From Escherichia phage phiG7, in sequence record OQ791410.1: DNA of 60,274 nt; one strand, given 5' to 3'. The notes beneath the pieces are model-generated. The model was not told the DNA's origin, searched no databases, and worked only from the letters and a program-made list of their open reading frames with translations. Below are positions 6,243 through 44,033 of the stretch, piece by piece. The position numbers and the translations under genes were made by a program. Within the stretch, counting starts at the first letter, position 1; every line of letters begins with the position of its first letter.

Positions 6243-6950
6243 ATGAGTATTAATCAACAAGCTCCCGAGTCTCGTTCTAAAGAAAACGATATGTATTTAG
6301 ACGTGCATTCGGTATTCTCTACCATTCAGGGTGAAGGTCCATTCTGCGGTCAACCTGCGGTATTTGTGCGCCTTGCTGGATGTAACCTGCAATGCCCGGG
6401 CTGCGACACGGATTATACTGTTGGTCGTTCTCTTTATCACATTGTTGATATCATGCGCTTGATTGAAAGCCGCAAACTGGAGTCTGGCAATAACACCTCA
6501 CTTGTGGTTATTACTGGGGGTGAACCATTCCGTCAGCAAATTAACCCGTTTGTTGAACAACTGTTATCACGCGGGTATCTTGTGCAGATTGAAACGAATG
6601 GGTCTATGCCTTTACCTAAGAACTTTTCCCAGCTACCTGTCATTGTATGCAGTCCTAAGACTTCAAAAATTCATCCTACTGTGCTGTACCGAGCAAACGC
6701 ATTTAAATATGTGCTTAAAGCGTGCTGTGTAAACGTGGAAGACGGTTTACCGCTTCAGGCATTAGATCATCAAGCTACGCCATTTATCGCTAGACCTCCG
6801 AAGGGGTTCAAGGGTAAGATATATTTACAGCCAATGGACGAGCAGGATGAAGATCTTAACCACAGTAACATCCAAGCGGTTGTCCAAAGCTGTATGAAAC
6901 ACGGGTACACGTTGCAGCTTCAGGTTCACAAATATATCGGGGTGGAATAA
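6243..6950 (+). CDS. queE: 7-carboxy-7-deazaguanine synthase (radical SAM)
   Basis: Radical-SAM CxxxCxxC motif (GCNLQCPGCDT) and QGEG motif; RBS GGAGG. Confidence 0.75.
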   Translation: MSINQQAPESRSKENDMYLDVHSVFSTIQGEGPFCGQPAVFVRLAGCNLQCPGCDTDYTVGRSLYHIVDIMRLIESRKLESGNNTSLVVITGGEPFRQQINPFVEQLLSRGYLVQIETNGSMPLPKNFSQLPVIVCSPKTSKIHPTVLYRANAFKYVLKACCVNVEDGLPLQALDHQATPFIARPPKGFKGKIYLQPMDEQDEDLNHSNIQAVVQSCMKHGYTLQLQVHKYIGVE

Positions 6951-7249
6951 TGCGTGTATTAAGTCAGGTTGTGCATACTAAAGAAGTTGAATACTTTGGT
7001 AATAAGCTTGATGTCCCTGAATGGGTACGGTGGTTGGCTACGGATCAAGACGGTACAGTTTACGGATTCGAGTATGAGCCAACGTTGATGGACAGTCAAA
7101 CTAAATGGACATCATACTGGGAAGATGATAACTTTTGTGAAATGGCAGAAGTTGACCTTGAAGGTATGGATTATAAACAAACATTAGTGAAGGTGAAAAG
7201 AAATGATCACTTTGGAAGAAGCGAAACAGCATCAGGAAATGATCACTGA
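6950..7249 (+). CDS. hypothetical protein
   Basis: 99-aa ORF, ATGA-type coupling to queE. Confidence 0.35.
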   Translation: MRVLSQVVHTKEVEYFGNKLDVPEWVRWLATDQDGTVYGFEYEPTLMDSQTKWTSYWEDDNFCEMAEVDLEGMDYKQTLVKVKRNDHFGRSETASGNDH

Positions 7250-7415
7250 GCTGGTAGAAAAACTTAATTCTGCAATTGCTCACGCTACTATGCAGGGCGT
7301 GCATGTAGAATTAGATATTAATCACGTTAGTACAATCGGGGCACGCAATCATCCAATTGTGATGTCAAACGTAACAATCAACCCTTGTGATATTAAAGGT
7401 GTAGAAGATGAATGA
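7203..7415 (+). CDS. hypothetical small protein (paralogue of next ORF)
   Basis: RBS AAGGTGA; sequence pattern similar to 7408..7596 product. Confidence 0.35.
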   Translation: MITLEEAKQHQEMITELVEKLNSAIAHATMQGVHVELDINHVSTIGARNHPIVMSNVTINPCDIKGVEDE

Positions 7416-7596
7416 AGAAACTGTAATTCTTATGCAGAAAATTCAACGTTTGCAAGACGAGTTGAATGACGCTATCTGTCGTGCTGCATCCAAGAACATA
7501 CATTCGGAGCTTGAGATTCATAAGCGTCAGATGACATCTGATGATGTAGTTGAACAAGTAGTCGTTAACCTTAATATTAGCCTTAAAGGTTTCTAA
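7408..7596 (+). CDS. hypothetical small protein
   Basis: 62-aa ORF overlapping previous by 8 nt. Confidence 0.35.
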   Translation: MNEETVILMQKIQRLQDELNDAICRAASKNIHSELEIHKRQMTSDDVVEQVVVNLNISLKGF

Positions 7597-7597
7597 A

Positions 7598-8320
7598 ATG
7601 AATAAATTAGATAAACTGGTATTCCCTGTAAAAAATCATAACTCCGCCGTTGTCGTCCTGTCTGGCGGCCAGGACAGCGTAACCTGTTTGGGCCTTGCCC
7701 TTAATAACTATGATAAGGTCTACGCTATTGGTTTTGCATACGGTCAACGTCATAACATTGAGCTGGCTTGTGCTAATCAAATTTGTAAAGAGCACGATGT
7801 CCCATTTGTTGTCTTTGAATTACCTGCTTTGAAACAGATTGGCAATAGCACTTTAATCGGGAACGAAGGTGATGTTAACGAACATCACGAACAGCACAAC
7901 AACCTTCCGGCAAGCTTTGTGCCAAACCGTAATGCGCTTTTCCTGACTACTGCGCACGCCTACGCGCAGAAAGTTGGCGCCAGATATGTGGTTACAGGCG
8001 TGTGTGAAACAGACTATAGCGGTTATCCAGATTGCCGCCAGCAGTTTGTAGACCTGCTTGAAGCTACATTAAACGTTGGATATGAAACTGATATTCATTT
8101 TGTTACACCGCTTATGCGTTTAAACAAAGCGGAAACGTTTGAGCTGGCGGATAAGGTTGGCTTCTTAACCACAGTAATTGAACAGTCCCATACTTGCTAT
8201 AACGGCGTCCGTCGCACTCTGCATGACTGGGGATATGGCTGCGGGGAATGCCCTGCGTGCAAACTTCGTGCTAAAGGGTACAGTGAATTTATGGATAACG
8301 CTTACAGTAAACACGTTTGA
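7598..8320 (+). CDS. queC: 7-cyano-7-deazaguanine (preQ0) synthase
   Basis: PP-loop SGGQDS motif, VTGVCETDYSGYPDC block, C-terminal zinc site CYNG...CGECPAC. Confidence 0.85.
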   Translation: MNKLDKLVFPVKNHNSAVVVLSGGQDSVTCLGLALNNYDKVYAIGFAYGQRHNIELACANQICKEHDVPFVVFELPALKQIGNSTLIGNEGDVNEHHEQHNNLPASFVPNRNALFLTTAHAYAQKVGARYVVTGVCETDYSGYPDCRQQFVDLLEATLNVGYETDIHFVTPLMRLNKAETFELADKVGFLTTVIEQSHTCYNGVRRTLHDWGYGCGECPACKLRAKGYSEFMDNAYSKHV

Positions 8321-8440
8321 TCTTACCGCGAAAACCGCACCGCTAGCGCATTGTTTAGGGTGCGGGAACCCAACTATACTACTAAAGCTTTTAAACCCAA
8401 CAACCAGCGAATACCGCTGTTAAAACTGGAGAACAAAAGT

Positions 8441-8920
8441 ATGAAATTTATCGTCGCTTATTTGGCTGCAATTACATTCGTAAACCTGGGCTTTTCCTAC
8501 CTTCCAATGCTTAACACGCCTCTTGGCGTGGTCCCGATGATGGCTTTCTTTGTAGGTATTATCTTTGTTCTGCGTGATTACGCACAGCGTAACGCTGGCA
8601 AAGGCGTCATCCCTGCAATGATTGTAGGTTGTATCCTTAGCTGGGTGTTCGGAGATCCTGCTGTTGTAGTTGCATCCGTTGCATCCTTTGCTCTTAGCGA
8701 GTTTGCGGATTATGCGGTATACACGATTACTAAGAAGCCTTTCCATCAACGCGTATTTATCAGCTCTTTGGTAGCTGTACCGATTGACTCCATTGTGTTC
8801 TTAAGTATTATAGGTATTGTTAATCCGGGATCAATGGTAGCAATGAGCTTAAGTAAGTTCACAGCATCTGCCATCCTTTGGGTCGTTTACGAAGTTCATT
8901 CACGTACAGCGAGAGCGTAA
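8441..8920 (+). CDS. small multi-pass membrane protein, possibly YhhQ/VUT-family queuosine-precursor transporter-like
   Basis: Several hydrophobic helices; embedded in deazaguanine cluster; start at MKFIV (RBS GGAG) preferred over 8351. Confidence 0.4.
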   Translation: MKFIVAYLAAITFVNLGFSYLPMLNTPLGVVPMMAFFVGIIFVLRDYAQRNAGKGVIPAMIVGCILSWVFGDPAVVVASVASFALSEFADYAVYTITKKPFHQRVFISSLVAVPIDSIVFLSIIGIVNPGSMVAMSLSKFTASAILWVVYEVHSRTARA

Positions 8921-8921
8921 A

Positions 8922-9479
8922 ATGAAAGATAATTTGAATAAAATTTGGCACCAACACGACGGTAAAGGAATGCCTATTTTTCTTCGTAATGAGAAGTTTG
9001 AAGTTCGTTTGCGCAACGGTACACACGTTAAGAATCTATTACATGGATGGGATTGGGCTATAGAAGGGCGTTCAGCTATGGATGAGGATAGCCCTTATAA
9101 AATTCAAGATATTATAGCCTGGCGATATATCGTTGCGGATGATTACGTCAAACAATCTATTGAAGCAAATTTGCCCGATTGGAGAACTGATAAAACCGCA
9201 ATTTTTACCAAATATGAACCATCTAAAATTCCCATGAATAAATATCAGAAAATTATTTATGGTAAAGATCAAAACGGCAATGTTGTAAAATGCATCGTGG
9301 ACGTGTATGATGTCTTGGAAGCTTGGAAAACAACTAACCCAGCTTTACAACATTTAATTAAAAAGGCGTTGCAGCTGGGCGAACGCGGTCATAAAAGTCT
9401 GGTAGAAGATTTGAAAGACATTATTGCGTCCGCACAGCGTGCATTAGAAATTGAACAGTCTAAAGAGGTATCAAAATGA
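8922..9479 (+). CDS. hypothetical protein
   Basis: 185-aa ORF, RBS GAGAG. Confidence 0.4.
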   Translation: MKDNLNKIWHQHDGKGMPIFLRNEKFEVRLRNGTHVKNLLHGWDWAIEGRSAMDEDSPYKIQDIIAWRYIVADDYVKQSIEANLPDWRTDKTAIFTKYEPSKIPMNKYQKIIYGKDQNGNVVKCIVDVYDVLEAWKTTNPALQHLIKKALQLGERGHKSLVEDLKDIIASAQRALEIEQSKEVSK

Positions 9480-9985
9480 GCTATACAGTAATTCGTTCAC
9501 ATGAAATTTGCGCCGGGCATCGTGTTGTAGGTCACGAAAGCAAATGTCGCCACCTCCACGGTCACAACTATAAGTTTCACTTTAAGGTTGCTCCGAAGCA
9601 TGGATGCGGAAAAGTAGTGACACGAGGAAAGCTGATTGAGGACGGTCTGGACAGCGTTGGGCGCGTGATCGACTTTAGTGTGGTTAAAACTACACTCTGC
9701 CAGTGGTTGGAAGATAATTGGGATCATAAATTTTTAGCCTTTGAAAAAGATCCTATGATTAAAGCGTTATATTACGCAACACCAAAGGACATTAATGCAA
9801 CGTTTAACGATATGTATACATTCCAACAATCCGTTGTATTTTTACCTTTCAACCCAACTGCGGAAAACCTAGCTGCATATATGGTTGAAGTAATTGGTCC
9901 GCTACTGCTTGACGAGCATGGTGTTCAACTTGTAGAATGCACCATCGAAGAAACTTCGAAATGTCACGTAAACTATAGCCTGTAA
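9476..9985 (+). CDS. queD: 6-carboxy-5,6,7,8-tetrahydropterin synthase
   Basis: CxxxHxH-type motif (CAGHRVVGHESKCRHLHGHNY) typical of QueD/PTPS. Confidence 0.75.
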   Translation: MSYTVIRSHEICAGHRVVGHESKCRHLHGHNYKFHFKVAPKHGCGKVVTRGKLIEDGLDSVGRVIDFSVVKTTLCQWLEDNWDHKFLAFEKDPMIKALYYATPKDINATFNDMYTFQQSVVFLPFNPTAENLAAYMVEVIGPLLLDEHGVQLVECTIEETSKCHVNYSL

Positions 9986-10021
9986 GTATGACCACATTAA
10001 CAAACAAGGAAACTGCAAACC

Positions 10022-10633
10022 ATGAGTGAATTTACCAAAATGATTAACGATGCGGAAATTAGACACAGCATTGAGAAGATTTTAAAGTTAATTGAAAATG
10101 GAGACACAGATACAGAGTTACGCGAAGGTCTTATCGAAACTCCGGCGCGTGTAGCAAAAGCTTATGCTACATGGTTTGGCGGTTATGGTGTCGATATTGG
10201 CGGGCTGTTTAAAACCTTTGAAGATGGTGCGGAAGGTACGGATGAAATGGTCATTGTCCGTGATATTCCTGTATACAGTCATTGTGAGCATCACATGGCC
10301 CCTATCATCGGTCGTGCTGTTGTGGGTTATGTTCCCAATGGGAAGATCGTTGGGCTTAGTAAACTGTCTCGCGTAGTTGATGCTTTTAGCCGTCGCTTGC
10401 AAGTCCAAGAGCGTCTAACTAACCAGATTGCAGACGCTATCCAGGAGCATTTAAACCCGAAAGCTGTATGCGTTTATATTGACGCCAAACATATGTGCAT
10501 GGAATCGCGCGGAGTTAAGCAGGTATGCGGCAGCTCTACTATTACCAAAGCGTTCCGGGGCGCTACAGAACTGGAGCATGGTAGCGATATTGGTAAAGAA
10601 TGGCGCCGGGAGTTCCTGGAAGCTTGTAAATAA
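10022..10633 (+). CDS. folE: GTP cyclohydrolase I
   Basis: [17 protein letters not shown] and GLSKLSR blocks characteristic of FolE. Confidence 0.8.
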
Positions 10634-10651
10634 TAGATAGCTTTACAGATC

Positions 10652-10690
10652 AAGCCCATATCGGTCATAATACTGGTATGGGCTTTTTAG
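10652..10690 (+). terminator. rho-independent terminator (long loop)
   Basis: AAGCCCATA ... TATGGGCTT stem then TTTAG. Confidence 0.5.
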
Positions 10691-10704
10691 TCATTGGGGG
10701 AAAT

Positions 10705-10911
10705 ATGTCAAGACAACTAATCTTAGAGACAGCATTCTACCAGCTTAAAGCAGGTACTGCGGATGCTTGTTCTGCAATACAGAATGATGCGCCTACAGAT
10801 GTCTTAAAGCAGCAGCTTATTGACGCTAAACATCGCGCGGACGAAGCATTTAATGAAGCGTGGCGTACTTTAGAACTAATTGATCAGTTTGGAGGACCGT
10901 TCCAAAAATGA
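10705..10911 (+). CDS. hypothetical small protein
   Basis: Start at MSRQL preferred; overlaps next gene start. Confidence 0.35.
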   Translation: MSRQLILETAFYQLKAGTADACSAIQNDAPTDVLKQQLIDAKHRADEAFNEAWRTLELIDQFGGPFQK

Positions 10912-11828
10912 ACGTTTTTATGGCAGCAGTTTACACGAACGGATATATGCCTGGACAGCAGCGTTATGAAAAACTGTCCGAGCATGAGAAAAATATCACG
11001 CGCAATCTGCCCCATATTTTGGAATCATATCACTACGTTGGGCGTCAGAAGTATGTTGATCAAATGCGTGCGGACGGGGCTAAAGTGTTTCTCGACTCCG
11101 GTGCATTCTCTGCGCACTCTTTGGGTGCGCACATTGATATTGTTGAATACTGCGAATACATTAAGCGCAACAAAGACATCCTTCGCGTAGAAGATGGTGC
11201 AGTAATGGCCTCGGTGCTTGATGGTATCGGTGATCCACTGCAAACCTACCGTAACCAGCTTGAAATGGAAGCACGCGGTGCTAAACCGTTACCGTGCTTT
11301 CACTTTGGTGAGGACTTCCGCTATCTTGAATATTACATGAAGAACTACGAATATATCACGATTGGTGGCATGGTAGGGCGTTCAACGGACACGCTTAAAA
11401 CTTGGCTGGACCGCATGTGGGACAAATACATTTGCGACGGTAGCGGTCGTCCTAAGATTAAGCTTCATGCATTTGGTATTACGTCCACAACCATTATGGA
11501 GCGTTACCCGTGGTATAGCTGTGACTCATCCTCCTGGATTCAAGCGGCAGCGTTTGGAAGTGTGGTTACTCCTCCGTGGGGCCCAATGCGCGTATCTGAT
11601 AAGTCACCAGACCGTCACCATTTTGGTAAGCATGTTTCAACGCTAACTGAAATTGAACAGGACGCTGTCCTTAAATACCTTGAGCAAAACGGTTTCACTT
11701 ACGAACGTTTATCAACAATCTATGAATCACGTGCCGCCTTCAACTTATGGGCGTATGGTGTAATTGCTGCAAACATTAACGCTACCCATGACGGCACATT
11801 CCGTGATCGTGTAATGGAGTTGTTCTGA
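10908..11828 (+). CDS. dpdA: DpdA-like DNA-guanine transglycosylase (TGT-fold)
   Basis: TGT-like blocks FLDSGAFS, ITIGGMVG, YSCDSSSW; location with queCDE/folE. Confidence 0.6.
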   Translation: MNVFMAAVYTNGYMPGQQRYEKLSEHEKNITRNLPHILESYHYVGRQKYVDQMRADGAKVFLDSGAFSAHSLGAHIDIVEYCEYIKRNKDILRVEDGAVMASVLDGIGDPLQTYRNQLEMEARGAKPLPCFHFGEDFRYLEYYMKNYEYITIGGMVGRSTDTLKTWLDRMWDKYICDGSGRPKIKLHAFGITSTTIMERYPWYSCDSSSWIQAAAFGSVVTPPWGPMRVSDKSPDRHHFGKHVSTLTEIEQDAVLKYLEQNGFTYERLSTIYESRAAFNLWAYGVIAANINATHDGTFRDRVMELF

Positions 11829-16909: not shown

Positions 16910-17115
16910 TGAATGAATATGTAGTTATTTATTTCATTATTGGTGCTGTGATTGCAGCAATGACTTATTTCTTTTGTTGGAATAATTATGATTATGCGCT
17001 AGCTCATAAGAAACGTTGGGAGAAAATTGTGAGTCTTCTATGCATACTTGTTTGCTGGCCAGTCGCTATTATTGCGACTACTTATGATCAATACATGTAC
17101 AGGAGAAGACGTTGA
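16894..17115 (+). CDS. small membrane protein
   Basis: Two hydrophobic helices. Confidence 0.4.
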   Translation: MGVYLMNEYVVIYFIIGAVIAAMTYFFCWNNYDYALAHKKRWEKIVSLLCILVCWPVAIIATTYDQYMYRRRR

Positions 17116-17393
17116 TGGAATACTTGCTAGTAATTGTTGCGCTGTTTCTTATTATTGTGGTTATAATGACAGGAGACAGTAACGAGAAAGGTTTCACAGC
17201 AATGAGCAGGGCGTTATTACGTGCCCTTGCTGTCGCACTGCTTGGAACCAGCTTTGCTATGGCGTTTGGGATTGTGGAGATCCCTAGCACCTATTACGGT
17301 TTTGTTAAAGTTCAACATCAACTCACTTATGCTACCGTCGTCGGATTGGGTGCTGTAACACTTGCAATCCTGTCAGCTTTTCATAAGCGTTAA
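17112..17393 (+). CDS. small membrane protein
   Basis: Three hydrophobic segments; last gene of plus arm. Confidence 0.4.
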   Translation: MMEYLLVIVALFLIIVVIMTGDSNEKGFTAMSRALLRALAVALLGTSFAMAFGIVEIPSTYYGFVKVQHQLTYATVVGLGAVTLAILSAFHKR

Positions 17394-17395
17394 AG

Positions 17396-17420
17396 AAAGG
17401 GGCGTTTGCCCCTTTTCTCT
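17396..17420. terminator. bidirectional rho-independent terminator at convergence of the two arms
   Basis: AAA-GGGGC-GTTT-GCCCC-TTTT, A-tract and T-tract on either side. Confidence 0.7.
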
Positions 17421-17595
17421 TCTTAGAATATACGAAAGAAAGCACCGTATGGGTATACGCCAAAAGTATTGAAAACAGGCGGTGCAAAAGCATTCACAAA
17501 CACCGGAGTTGGCGCTACTGGTTGAAACGTCTTGCAATTACACGCTGCTTGAGCCAATTGCCCCTGAAGTATACCTGCTTGTGTTGCAGGACTGC

Positions 17596-17867
17596 CTAAA
17601 CAGTCAGGTTAGTACCGTTCTGCCCCTGAATGGTCTGAAGAGTACCGTTGTTAATGGCTTGCAGAATTGCGTTGGTGTCAACAGAAGCTTGAACTTCCAC
17701 CGGACCAGCGAAGTTACCGCGACCACCCCAACCACCATTGCCACCCCAACCGTTACCGATCCAGGAACCAATCAAACCACCGATCGCACCACCAATACCA
17801 GCCGCACCAGCTTCACCGCCGAAACCGTGCCACCGAGATTAGTAGGTAAAAGAGTCATGTCAGACAT
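17596..17867 (-). pseudogene. glycine-zipper, microcin-like small protein (possible double-glycine leader MSDMTLLPTNLGG), reading frame broken after the GG motif
   Basis: RBS GGAG 8 nt before ATG at 17867; frame 1 stops after 31 aa; the adjacent frame is open for 81 codons rich in GxxxG (AGAAGIGGAIGGLIGSWIGNGWGG); one extra G in ACGG would fuse leader and core. Confidence 0.4.
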
Positions 17868-17993
17868 AGGAAAATCTCCATATATGGATTTGTTAAGCGG
17901 ATGTAACCAACTGGTTACGAAGTAAAGCATACCCATTAACATGCTTTTTACAATGATCCATATGTAAAGATTTTGTAAATTAGGATTGACAGC

Positions 17994-18022
17994 CAATAAA
18001 AAGCGCGCCCGGAGACGCGCTG
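17994..18022 (-). terminator. rho-independent terminator after tail fibre gene (minus strand)
   Basis: AGCGCG-8 nt loop-CGCGCT followed on minus strand by TTTTATT. Confidence 0.65.
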
Positions 18023-18038
18023 AGGAAGTTAGATGTGG

Positions 18039-19799
18039 TTATGGAAGGTTAGTTTGCTGTGAACCATTCGCTTCTTTTAGTGCAGCTAATTCCGCTTCTA
18101 GGTTCTCCACCTTTTCCATCAAAGCAAGAATTGCTTCATGGTGCAATGCCGCAGCTATACCGGAAGTGTTTACAGACTTCACATCACTCACGGATGAACC
18201 ATTGCGTAAGGTAACAGGAGAGAACTTTGTTTCGGATACTGCTTCAGGGAAATCCTTCTCTACATCCTGAGCAATAAATCCATACCCAACTGACCCATTT
18301 GTTTCCAATGTCCATTTAACGCCTTTAATGTTCCGCATCTTGGACAGTGGATCGTTTATACGCTCAATATTACTTTTAATGCGTTTGTCGGATAAACTTC
18401 TCCATTCTTGGCATTTTGCTATACCGTCCGACCCAAAAAGATAAGATGCAGCTCCTCCGCTTCCGTCATAGACGTTAAGCTGCATCCTATCTAACAACGT
18501 ACTATCGGAGCGAATACCACCAAGAATCCAGCTTCCATCATACCAATCGCCGCTTATAGTGTTTACAAAATACCCTTCTCCAACATTGGCGTAGTTTATC
18601 ATCCTTATGGCGTTTCTTTCTATGGCGCTAACTCCAACGGAGTTTAATGGCTGTGCAAGGAAGTCTTTTGCTCGTACATATGCGTCAACCTGTATTGCCC
18701 CATCACTTCTCAGTGTCCCGATCTGTGACTCTGCGTTTGGAAGGCGCAATGTACCATCCTGACCAAATGCCCATTCCTGAACACCATTTGATAACACCGC
18801 CCCTGATTCGCTGCTCAATCCATCAATCTTTCCGTAAGATTGCAAATACGCTTGATGTGTGGTAGTCGTACCTATCTTGTATTCTGATTTTACACTACCC
18901 CCTCTTACAATTGTTCCAGAAGAAGGTTTGACAGCGTCAGCGTTTATTACACTCCATGCTGTATTTGCCGCAACGAAACCACCTGACGCACGGATTACCC
19001 ACACACCGACAAAGTTTCGTGTAAGAATTTCATCAGTTGATTGTCCGTAAATTGGACTTGAAATTGAGGCATTGAAATCACAGGTGTTATAACGCCCAGC
19101 GAGCACCGCTGGGCCTGGGGGTATACCATCTCCTTTTCCTTCCGGAAATGCATTATTATTTGCGGTAAAACAACCACCTGTATGACCTAATACCTGGCCG
19201 TAAGTTTGAGCGGAATATGTGGTGAAAAAACCTGTAATATTTGGCGCAGCGGATTCGAACAGTTGCCCATTTGCAGAGGAGTTTCCACCATCACCTCGAC
19301 CATAAAGTGCGCGAATGGACCCCTCTTGAACACCGTTTTTATCTGGTACGCGGAAAGTTGTTACTCCGTCGCCAGAGGAATATCTGCCGCGTTTAAATTT
19401 ATTAGACAGCCATTCACTATCATCTATAAGCCCGACCATTTGAGCGTAATTCCATAATTCAGGCCAGTCTGCACGGTTAAGTAATTGCCCGTCCGATGTA
19501 ACCTCATAAGGTTGAACGTAAGCGCGACTATCCCGGAGATGGAAATCCCCTACCCCGTAATTCATTACCCCGTTCATTGTTGGACCAACTGTACCTGTGT
19601 TGATTAAGTTCTCAACCCAACGTTTAGTTGCTGCATCATAATCGCTAACTGGGTCCCCAGCTAATGGCGTAGACCCAATTGGTCGAACGTTTAACCACGC
19701 GGCAGCGCGGTCCGCAAGATCAGATAAATTATTACTTTTATCCATCTTTTCGTCTTTAAGTTTTGTAATGTCCTGAGGGATATTAGTATAAGTAGTCAT
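18039..19799 (-). CDS. tail fibre protein with C-terminal intramolecular chaperone (peptidase S74-like) domain
   Basis: C-terminal SDKRIKSNIE motif and coiled coil typical of self-cleaving chaperone domains. Confidence 0.6.
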   Translation of the reverse strand: MTTYTNIPQDITKLKDEKMDKSNNLSDLADRAAAWLNVRPIGSTPLAGDPVSDYDAATKRWVENLINTGTVGPTMNGVMNYGVGDFHLRDSRAYVQPYEVTSDGQLLNRADWPELWNYAQMVGLIDDSEWLSNKFKRGRYSSGDGVTTFRVPDKNGVQEGSIRALYGRGDGGNSSANGQLFESAAPNITGFFTTYSAQTYGQVLGHTGGCFTANNNAFPEGKGDGIPPGPAVLAGRYNTCDFNASISSPIYGQSTDEILTRNFVGVWVIRASGGFVAANTAWSVINADAVKPSSGTIVRGGSVKSEYKIGTTTTHQAYLQSYGKIDGLSSESGAVLSNGVQEWAFGQDGTLRLPNAESQIGTLRSDGAIQVDAYVRAKDFLAQPLNSVGVSAIERNAIRMINYANVGEGYFVNTISGDWYDGSWILGGIRSDSTLLDRMQLNVYDGSGGAASYLFGSDGIAKCQEWRSLSDKRIKSNIERINDPLSKMRNIKGVKWTLETNGSVGYGFIAQDVEKDFPEAVSETKFSPVTLRNGSSVSDVKSVNTSGIAAALHHEAILALMEKVENLEAELAALKEANGSQQTNLP

Positions 19800-43610: not shown

Positions 43611-44033
43611 TTAATTAAGCACAATCTCAACGTCTTTAACCCAAGTATGAATGATAAATGCTCCTGGCTGTTCAGGATCTTGATCCGGGCCAACGTAGAA
43701 CTTTTTACCTTCCCAACCTTTAATTGGGTCATGTACAATAAACTTGTGATTAGTTGTATCGATCACAACCTGATGCAGTGCTCCAGGAACATTGAGACTT
43801 GGGACAGTGCACAAAAACAAACCACCCATGTATATAGTTTCACGCCCACCGCCTACAGAACAGATGTGGTCAACATTGTTTTGTACTAGATATTCGGAAA
43901 TTGTTATTTCCCAATTGTTGTAATATCGATCATGAAATTCCGCAATTACTTCTTCTACAGGTCTATTAAGGATCATTGCCAGACACGCAGAAACGCATGT
44001 ATTCAATGTTGGTTGCTTGACATGTTTAATCAT
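43611..44033 (-). CDS. C39-like (papain-fold) cysteine peptidase
   Basis: Cys motif QPTLNTCVSACLAMIL and His/Asp motif HQVVID...IVHDP as in bacteriocin-processing C39 domains. Confidence 0.55.
   Translation of the reverse strand: MIKHVKQPTLNTCVSACLAMILNRPVEEVIAEFHDRYYNNWEITISEYLVQNNVDHICSVGGGRETIYMGGLFLCTVPSLNVPGALHQVVIDTTNHKFIVHDPIKGWEGKKFYVGPDQDPEQPGAFIIHTWVKDVEIVLN

Follow-up and report, generated by a model that had tools for sequence, protein, structure and literature searches.

A probable gene remnant, truncated and frameshifted, behind the lateral tail-fibre gene of Escherichia phage phiG7

The window analysed here is the whole stretch of 60,274 nucleotides from Escherichia phage phiG7, a Seuratvirus (Queuovirinae) that a 2026 preprint also names as such, and the locus of interest is a small minus-strand gene at 17596-17867. 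Its ATG (17867-17865) is preceded, with a spacer of 8 nt, by a Shine-Dalgarno sequence, GGAG, at 17876..17879 on the minus strand, which was read directly and is identical in orthologues. The ATG frame encodes MSDMTLLPTNLGGTVSAVKLVRLVLVVRSVV and ends after 31 aa at a TGA (17772-17774, minus strand). The -1 frame remains open over about 80 codons, from just past codon 9 to a TAG at 17598-17596 (minus strand), and its Gly-rich translation includes ...GFGGEAGAAGIGGAIGGLIGSWIGNGWGGNGGWGGRGNF...GTNLTV (in a fuller reading, ...GFGGEAGAAGIGGAIGGLIGSWIGNGWGGNGGWGGRGNFAGPVEVQASVDTNAILQAINNGTLQTIQGQNGTNLTV). By inspection, a glycine zipper, (GxxxG)4, is formed by G26-G30-G34-G38-G42 within a moderately hydrophobic segment of 19 residues. 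The first-pass annotation had described a minus-strand gene with its own ribosome binding site, a stop at 31 aa in the ATG frame and an open Gly-rich glycine-zipper frame next to it, and was confirmed on each of these points, the open frame extending to 17596. The GenBank record of phiG7 annotates here only a 59-aa fragment started at a TTG (ORF 17596-17775, WJN62477.1), the sequence of which matched exactly on one contig only; the allele was seen only in phiG7. The plus-strand ORF at 17482-17925 is an antisense shadow, as had been suspected: its frame is lost in CAjan, where the plus strand of the same DNA carries a different, Pro-rich ORF of 92 aa.

The gene is located directly behind the lateral tail-fibre ORF (18039-19799), which has a Peptidase_S74 C-terminus (Pfam PF13884, E=3.4e-12), and it is enclosed by terminators. 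An intrinsic terminator 3' of the tail-fibre gene was identified in a terminator scan at 18002..18021 on the minus strand and is annotated as a terminator in SA126VB. On the other side, the scan placed a bidirectional terminator between convergent gene blocks at 17395..17416, which is annotated on both strands in SA126VB, so that the intact gene of that phage is bracketed by two annotated terminators. Between the first terminator and the ATG, conservation across phages pointed to a promoter-like element at 17926..17953 (minus strand), with a -35 hexamer TTGTAA (17953-17948), a 16-nt spacer and a -10 hexamer TATGCT (17931-17926). The element occurs once in the window and is weak relative to the sigma-70 consensus (8/12), and a consensus scan of 17000-18300 for sigma-70 promoters returned none, the candidate element falling below the threshold. 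A -10-like hexamer (TATACT, CATACT, TAGAAT or TAGATT) is nevertheless present at the same place in SLUR25, Sasha, aaroes, BHUENT9 and the metagenome contig L015, and the 17926-17953 element may function as a promoter.

A hairpin, GTAACC-AGTT-GGTTAC, follows at 17903..17918 on the minus strand, 7 nt past the -10-like hexamer and 35 nt before the ATG. The upstream order is conserved: a -10-like hexamer, 7 nt, a hairpin of 5-6 bp, about 30-40 nt and the ribosome binding site. The stems are GTAACC/GGTTAC in the window, CAjan, SE1 and Sasha, and covary in aaroes (GTAACA/TGTTGC), L015 (GTGGC/GCCAC), BHUENT9 (GTAGC/GCTAC) and eiAU-183 (TGTAAC/GTTACA). As judged from position and conservation, the hairpin is probably a stem-loop at the 5' terminus of the mRNA. 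In Sasha and PY100 the gene upstream of the family member is divergent, which implies that the family gene must start its own transcription unit. Together with the flanking terminators and the conserved promoter-like element, this makes the earlier suggestion of independent transcription plausible, and reasonable for the intact gene.

The gene order in this part of the genome is shared among relatives. The succession from S74 tail fibre to family gene is common to CAjan, SA126VB, aaroes and a metagenome contig, and the family gene is followed by genes of about 106-124, 169-177 and 78-94 aa. In most of these phages the intact gene is located directly past the lateral tail-fibre gene and is the first of a cassette, with three to four small genes behind it. 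This conserved arrangement, with the family gene at its head, recurs in Queuovirinae, Drexlerviridae and Sashavirus, with the exception of Sasha and its divergent upstream gene.

A megablast search with 17300-18100 retrieved 45 related phage records. In CAjan, SA126VB, ECP2304, SLUR25 and others the same ATG is the start of a gene of 708 nt. Its product in CAjan, gp21 (YP_009196815; 235 aa), carries the annotations hypothetical and pVOG VOG6476. With one G restored, the 90 aa encoded in the window match phrog_9288 (E=1e-43, profile positions 1-88 of 234), and full-length CAjan gp21 matches the same profile with E=1e-129. Since the profile match was accompanied by 100% protein identity to six orthologues despite synonymous differences, the Gly-rich frame is real coding sequence and not a chance opening. 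This disposes of the other possibility raised beforehand, that the frame was a non-coding artefact of low complexity.

The alignments show how the frame was broken. Codons 1-13 of the phrog_9288/VOG6476 gene (MSDMTLLPTNLGG) are read in the ATG frame at 17829..17867 (minus strand), as supported by translation, alignment and profile match. Codons 14-90, which cover the glycine-zipper segment and the first helix, are located at 17599..17828 (minus strand) and have come to be in the -1 frame. Between the bases at 17828..17829 (minus strand) a G is absent: the window reads GGTGGC-ACGGT at the site where CAjan, SA126VB, WildeMaa and others have GGTGGCGACGGT, or, over a slightly shorter span, GGTGGC-ACGG against GGTGGCGACGG in CAjan, SA126VB, WildeMaa, VogelGryff, ECP2304 and SLUR25. 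The missing base is the G at the first position of codon 14 (GAC, Asp) in GGC-GAC-GGT, such that the unbroken form GGCGACGG has become GGCACGG. The proposal that leader and core belong to one gene, the frame of which is broken by a single missing G, was therefore correct, and orthologues read MSDMTLLPTNLGG-D-GFGGEAG... across the site. It had also been described as a break at a G run; one G is indeed missing, but the site is not a G homopolymer. An exact-string scan of IMG/VR for the frameshifted sequence gave no matches.

The same alignments bear on the idea that the two frames are joined by a programmed -1 ribosomal frameshift and that the broken arrangement is a functional design. The direction of the shift would be the one needed, and the fold of the first 108 nt is somewhat more stable than that of shuffled sequence (z = -2.4), if only modestly so. 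Against this, the zone of overlap, from the -1-frame TAA at codon 9 to the 0-frame TGA at codon 32, contains no slippery heptamer of the type X XXY YYZ, the six close orthologues and the family at large use a single frame, and the product would even then be a truncated peptide of 90 aa. We regard a programmed shift, which had been put forward as one way to connect leader and core, as highly implausible.

The second lesion is a deletion. Homology to CAjan and SA126VB stops exactly past ...GTNLTV (codon 90), and a TAG in the window takes the place of the 145 further codons (ERSAAST...) of the relatives. From this point, the sequence at 17423-17614 is about 98-99% identical to the 3' part of a Cys-rich gene of 67 aa, MCGNTNRCCLGSPATQ...FFRIF (phrog_25697; CSP1C_023 and WildeMaa bas23_0026), the final gene ahead of the bidirectional terminator in CSP1C, KS_W4, WildeMaa, KurtStettler, SLUR25 and SA126VB. 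Codons ~10-67 and the stop codon of this gene are present at 17423..17598 (minus strand), and its start codon and ribosome binding site are absent from the window. BLAST against SA126VB produced two segments that overlap at 17599-17614, with TACTAACCTGACTGTT aligned against AATACTAACCGTTGCTGT. Both the overlapping segments and the alignments place the deletion junction within this imperfect microhomology of 16 nt, TACTAACCTGACTGTT, at 17599..17614 on the minus strand, which the Gly-rich gene (codons 85-90) has in common with the 67-aa gene (codons 4-9). Relative to SA126VB, 1733 bp are lost, comprising codons 91-235, the VOG6120, VOG6119 and VOG5767 genes and the first codons of the 67-aa gene.

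The alignments further show that the TAG at 17596..17598 (minus strand), which ends the Gly-rich frame, arose because the junction is out of frame: TGT TTA GGC in the 67-aa gene is here read as ..T TAG G... What had been taken for the natural end of the gene is thus the deletion junction. The string across the junction gave no matches in an exact-string scan of IMG/VR. We also considered the 67-aa Cys-rich protein as a paralogue of the C-terminus of gp21, and rejected this candidate (BLASTP E=1.2).

Damage to this gene is not confined to phiG7. In WildeMaa (Bas23), bas23_0023 retains codons 1-90 in frame, followed by GLWE and a stop, for a total of 94 aa; it is joined there, out of frame and at an ACTGTTG microhomology, to the middle of the VOG6119 gene. 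WildeMaa and phiG7 are thus alike in being cut past codon 90, out of frame and at a short microhomology, and differ in that WildeMaa has kept the frame of codons 1-90 and two more of the downstream genes. The gene of VogelGryff (bas25_0025) retains about 181 codons and is no longer followed by the remainder of the cassette, and in KurtStettler (bas22_0024) residues 19-235 are fused in frame to the C-terminal S74 domain of a tail-fibre protein. The additional loss of 1 nt was found only in phiG7, when compared with these three alleles. Copies in T5-like phages have an in-frame stop and a truncated end, a decayed copy being located in the tail region, and the short members of the family in metagenomes end in aberrant tails of the kind that frameshifts produce. 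The BASEL study singled out the locus of the lateral tail fibre as the region where these genomes vary most, and notes that lateral fibres are dispensable on K-12 (PMC8594841). Deletions mediated by microhomology thus appear to trim the cassette behind the lateral tail-fibre gene repeatedly in Seuratvirus isolates. The in-frame form of 94 aa in WildeMaa, cut at the same codon as in phiG7, is at the same time a caveat to reading such alleles as decay, and a truncated N-terminal module may retain a function of its own.

To place the lesions in time, we compared the repaired codons 1-90 with each of the six Seuratvirus orthologues. The pairs differed at 9-12 codons and by no nonsynonymous substitution. 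Five substitutions were specific to the window, all of them synonymous although only about 25% of the sites are synonymous, and among the six relatives themselves 13 codons vary without any amino-acid change. Because the differences are synonymous only, purifying selection acted on the Gly-rich frame until very recently, and a remnant with no nonsynonymous change lacks the drift of an old pseudogene. This leaves two options: both lesions are young, or the 1-nt loss is a mistake in the record. That the remnant is free of nonsynonymous change is a caveat to the decay reading in its own right, as the 1-nt loss could stem from sequencing or from the consensus.

If it does, an in-frame N-terminal module of 90 aa with the glycine zipper would be made, as in WildeMaa, and might serve the phage as a short membrane-active peptide. 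The synonymous pattern just described agrees with this, as do the WildeMaa version cut at the same codon, the intact promoter-like element, hairpin, ribosome binding site and ATG, and the absence of the frameshift string from IMG/VR. The nature of the lost base is also suggestive. In CAjan, G is replaced by dPreQ0 in two contexts and the modification lowers the quality of Nanopore reads (PMC7544227). What was lost is the G in a GA step adjoining GGC, which are exactly the two dPreQ0 contexts of CAjan, and the dPreQ0 pathway is whole in the window (DpdA, FolE, QueD, YhhQ, QueC and QueE at 6243-11676). A base-calling error at a dPreQ0-modified G as the source of the missing G is only a lead, and we flag position 17828/17829 of the phiG7 record as a possible base error at a modified G. 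On the other hand, the site is not a homopolymer, and the synonymous-only pattern is equally well explained by very recent damage. Furthermore, the truncation itself arose by accident, out of frame and at a microhomology, as in WildeMaa, short members in metagenomes bear the tails expected of frameshifts, and about 170 homologue clusters retain the full length of about 235 aa with invariant residues throughout the C-terminal part. A record error that conceals a useful 90-aa peptide is therefore unlikely. We give equally little credence to the broader proposition that the N-terminal module of about 90 residues is a self-sufficient, independently transcribed membrane-active peptide kept by both WildeMaa and phiG7, with the frameshift as a base-calling error at a dPreQ0-modified G.

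The intact family is large. We collected 169 homologous protein clusters, almost all of 225-240 aa, and tblastn located the gene in 176 phage records that include Queuovirinae, Drexlerviridae (aaroes gp76), Sashavirus, Yersinia PY100-like phages, Edwardsiella eiAU and T5-like Epseptimavirus, the last of these at about 40% identity. A profile search of 1.8 billion representatives yielded 128 clusters at 50% identity, mostly of 200-260 aa, and none of ten distant members tested from these contained a Pfam domain. The family alignment displays a conserved MSDMTLLP start, the Gly-zipper segment, invariant QGFAGLN, CCC (CCCETNLNIER), TR and ICD-K (ICDLK) motifs and a C-terminus NFKLPTPPTPP, often followed by GCC. 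AlphaFold2 modelled the full-length family protein from 35 sequences with low confidence (pLDDT 53): residues 1-64 came out disordered and 89-220 as a single long helix, too poor a model for fold comparison. The family profile gave only chance matches to PDB sequences (E ~0.5), and a literature search on the family identifiers and on phage glycine-zipper proteins near tail fibres found nothing useful. The phiG7 locus corresponds to this family in profile match, in collinearity and in its position after a Peptidase_S74 gene, and ends at codon 90, short of the full-length architecture of about 225-240 aa with its C-terminal motifs and tail. By this alignment it is to be classified as a remnant and not as an intact member.

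The first-pass annotation had interpreted the locus as the precursor of a Gly-rich class II bacteriocin, in which a leader of 13 residues ending in a double glycine would be cut off by the stand-alone C39-like peptidase of the phage, the frame being restored by an extra G or a shift. The Gly-rich hydrophobic composition and the (GxxxG)4 motif are in line with such a precursor. The size is not: microcin precursors are small (well under ~120 aa) and the orthologues here have 225-240 aa, with a C-terminal two-thirds that is long, helical and Cys-rich, so the small microcin-like peptide is a truncated remnant and its size of about 90 aa an artefact of the deletion. Nor does the supposed leader hold. 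It has only 13 residues, compared with 15-25 in leaders that end in GG, GA or GS, and bears no resemblance to leaders of the LSxxELxxIxGG type. In the family alignment NLGG falls in a stretch that varies by indels and is absent from most members, many of which read LLPTG----GF-GGEAG without the GG after residue 11.

Profile searches, including the search of the fused 90 aa against microcin, bacteriocin and Gly-zipper models that had been suggested, were equally unsupportive. With the repaired 90-aa and the full-length proteins as queries, Pfam (E up to 1) returned no microcin, bacteriocin or Gly-zipper match and only DUF6160 (E=0.09), NCBIfam gave no matches and PADLOC nothing relevant. The lack of a Pfam glycine-zipper match contrasts with the motif seen by inspection; the Pfam Gly-zipper families include PF13488, PF13441 and PF05433. 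At the locus in intact relatives there is neither a linked immunity gene nor a C39-ABC exporter (PCAT) with its accessory protein, and the three to four conserved phage genes that adjoin it are small and encode no transporter domains.

The peptidase itself deserves separate mention. ORF 43611-44033, the only C39-like ORF, encodes a stand-alone protein of 140 aa and lies 26 kb from the Gly-rich gene. Its match to Pfam PF03412 is below threshold (13.7 bits at a gathering cut-off of 22, E=0.058, residues 3-24 only), and Q7, C13, H87 and D102 are invariant in 16 sequences. The predicted structure (pLDDT 94) has as its best match in the PDB the C39 domain of PCAT1 (E=3e-3, probability 1.0, TM 0.52), along with ComA and staphopain, and on this model the C39-like, papain-like fold is real. 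The earlier description of the ORF as a C39-like peptidase thus stands with respect to fold and catalytic residues, its strand is to be given as minus, and the role of partner to the Gly-rich gene is not borne out. The peptidase family was found in 196 phage records of unrelated phages, including myophages of about 150-160 kb (EP75, SeSz-1, Ag3), Vibrio phages and Pseudomonas phages, and its distribution does not follow that of the Gly-rich family (176 records), which occurs also in Drexlerviridae and T5-like phages. Moreover, the peptidase is intact in a genome where the Gly-rich gene is destroyed. Taken together, these results make a bacteriocin precursor exceedingly improbable.

We consider it very likely that what remains at 17596-17867 (minus strand) is the decayed 5' end of a conserved CAjan gp21-type gene, disabled by the 1733-bp deletion and by the loss of a G in codon 14. 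Illegitimate recombination at the 16-nt microhomology would have caused the 1733-bp loss, taking with it codons 91-235, three genes and the start of the 67-aa gene. The out-of-frame junction generates the TAG at 17596, and the loss of one G in codon 14 splits the first 13 codons from the rest. If the remnant is still transcribed, as its upstream region would allow, the intact ribosome binding site and ATG would direct the synthesis of only a 31-aa out-of-frame peptide, and if the missing G is an artefact, of a truncated 90-aa peptide at most; the original function has presumably been lost. The microcin interpretation is hereby corrected to ordinary gene decay at a recombination-prone locus, with little import for the phiG7 stretch itself. 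The wider value lies in the family, phrog_9288, which is widespread, strongly conserved and dispensable in culture, and what novelty remains resides in the intact family, in its conserved 5' hairpin and in the two deletion variants that both end at codon 90. Our best guess is that the intact protein is a moron-like accessory, membrane-associated protein tied to the lateral tail-fibre module and not a secreted toxin. Less probably, the family, with its Gly-zipper, predicted helix of about 130 residues and invariant CCC/C clusters, could be a new kind of envelope or exclusion factor of the infected cell, a reading to which we give little credence.

With CAjan gp21, phiG7 shares the same protein over codons 1-90 once the G is restored, and the two are alike in the upstream region, the ribosome binding site and the position after the S74 gene; phiG7 differs in lacking codons 91-235, in the frameshift at codon 14 and in the deletion of the three following cassette genes. 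The likeness to Gly-rich class II microcins of the MccV/MccL type is limited to the Gly/Ala/Ile-rich hydrophobic stretch and the GxxxG spacing, whereas the intact protein of about 235 aa has a long helical Cys-rich domain and is without a conserved GG leader, immunity or exporter genes or HMM similarity. Transmembrane glycine-zipper proteins have the (GxxxG)4 motif in common with it, although no Pfam model matches and membrane insertion is putative here. A further analogy is to morons, which are autonomous promoter-gene-terminator units in the late regions of phages, such as lambda bor and lom or HK97 gp15. Like these, the intact gene is situated at the end of the tail module, between two terminators and with a conserved promoter-like element of its own, and it is dispensable, as indicated by the deleted and broken alleles in viable isolates. 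Unlike typical morons, it is carried by virulent phages and leads a multi-gene cassette rather than forming a single insert, and a role of the superinfection-exclusion type would be hypothetical.

The deletions that truncated the gp21-type gene in phiG7 and in WildeMaa (L001) are separate events, with junctions at 17599-17614 in the window and at approximately 2432-2445 in the WildeMaa locus, and their left breakpoints are only 1-2 nt apart. Both lie past codon 90 (...CTGACTGTT), and CTGTT is present in the short microhomology at each deletion, while the right partners are not the same. The near-identity of the left breakpoints is either coincidental or due to a hotspot of recombination at this site. 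Adjoining the phiG7 remnant, at 17423-17598 on the minus strand, is a 3' fragment, without its 5' end, of a gene for a conserved 67-aa Cys-rich protein (phrog_25697; MCGNTNRCC...ACNCK...FFRIF). This is the final gene ahead of the bidirectional terminator in related phages, and its product showed no significant similarity to the C-terminus of gp21 (E = 1.2).

Altered copies of the gp21-type gene were also found in other phages. The copy in the T5-like Salmonella phage polluks (L007, 4794-5342) has an in-frame stop after 109 codons as well as a truncated C-terminus, and several Epseptimavirus records annotate two hypothetical proteins for the homologue. These sequences point to decay also in the T5-like lineage, or possibly to a split form of the gene. 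In KurtStettler (L008, 3020-4552), a Peptidase_S74 tail-fibre protein carries at its end, through an in-frame fusion, residues 19-235 of the gp21-type protein, and this segment takes the place of the chaperone domain's terminal helix. The fusion product is annotated as a "putative lateral tail fiber chaperone", a label that is based on position and is no evidence of function.

Upstream of the gp21-type gene, a -10-like hexamer and a hairpin at 17903-17953 on the minus strand are conserved across phage families, and the equivalent position is occupied by the same pair in eight of the compared loci (L002, L006, L011, L012, L015, L019, L021 and L022). A gap of 7 nt separates the conserved hexamer from the downstream hairpin, which has 5-6 bp and lies 30-40 nt upstream of the start codon. 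On inspection of the sequences, the stems appear to covary between the families (GTAACC/GGTTAC, GTAACA/TGTTGC, GTGGC/GCCAC, GTAGC/GCTAC, TGTAAC/GTTACA), and the hairpin is probably a 5'-terminal stem-loop of the mRNA.

Since the window encodes a complete 7-deazaguanine (dPreQ0) DNA-modification pathway (6243-11676), phiG7 DNA probably carries the modification at GA and GGC, a point that bears on both sequencing accuracy and restriction resistance. The DpdA, FolE, QueD, YhhQ, QueC and QueE proteins are 75-99% identical to their CAjan counterparts.

The leader-cleaving enzyme proposed in the first-pass annotation for a microcin-like peptide is a stand-alone papain/C39-like cysteine peptidase of 140 aa (43611-44033, minus strand). 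Homologues were present in 196 phage records from very diverse phages, among them myophages of about 150-160 kb, Vibrio phages and Pseudomonas phages, and are variously labelled hypothetical, "T3SS chaperone" or "ABC-type bacteriocin transporter peptidase domain". Residues Q7, C13, H87 and D102 are invariant, and the top PDB matches of the peptidase, for which the AF2 model has a pLDDT of 94, were the C39 domain of PCAT1, ComA and staphopain.
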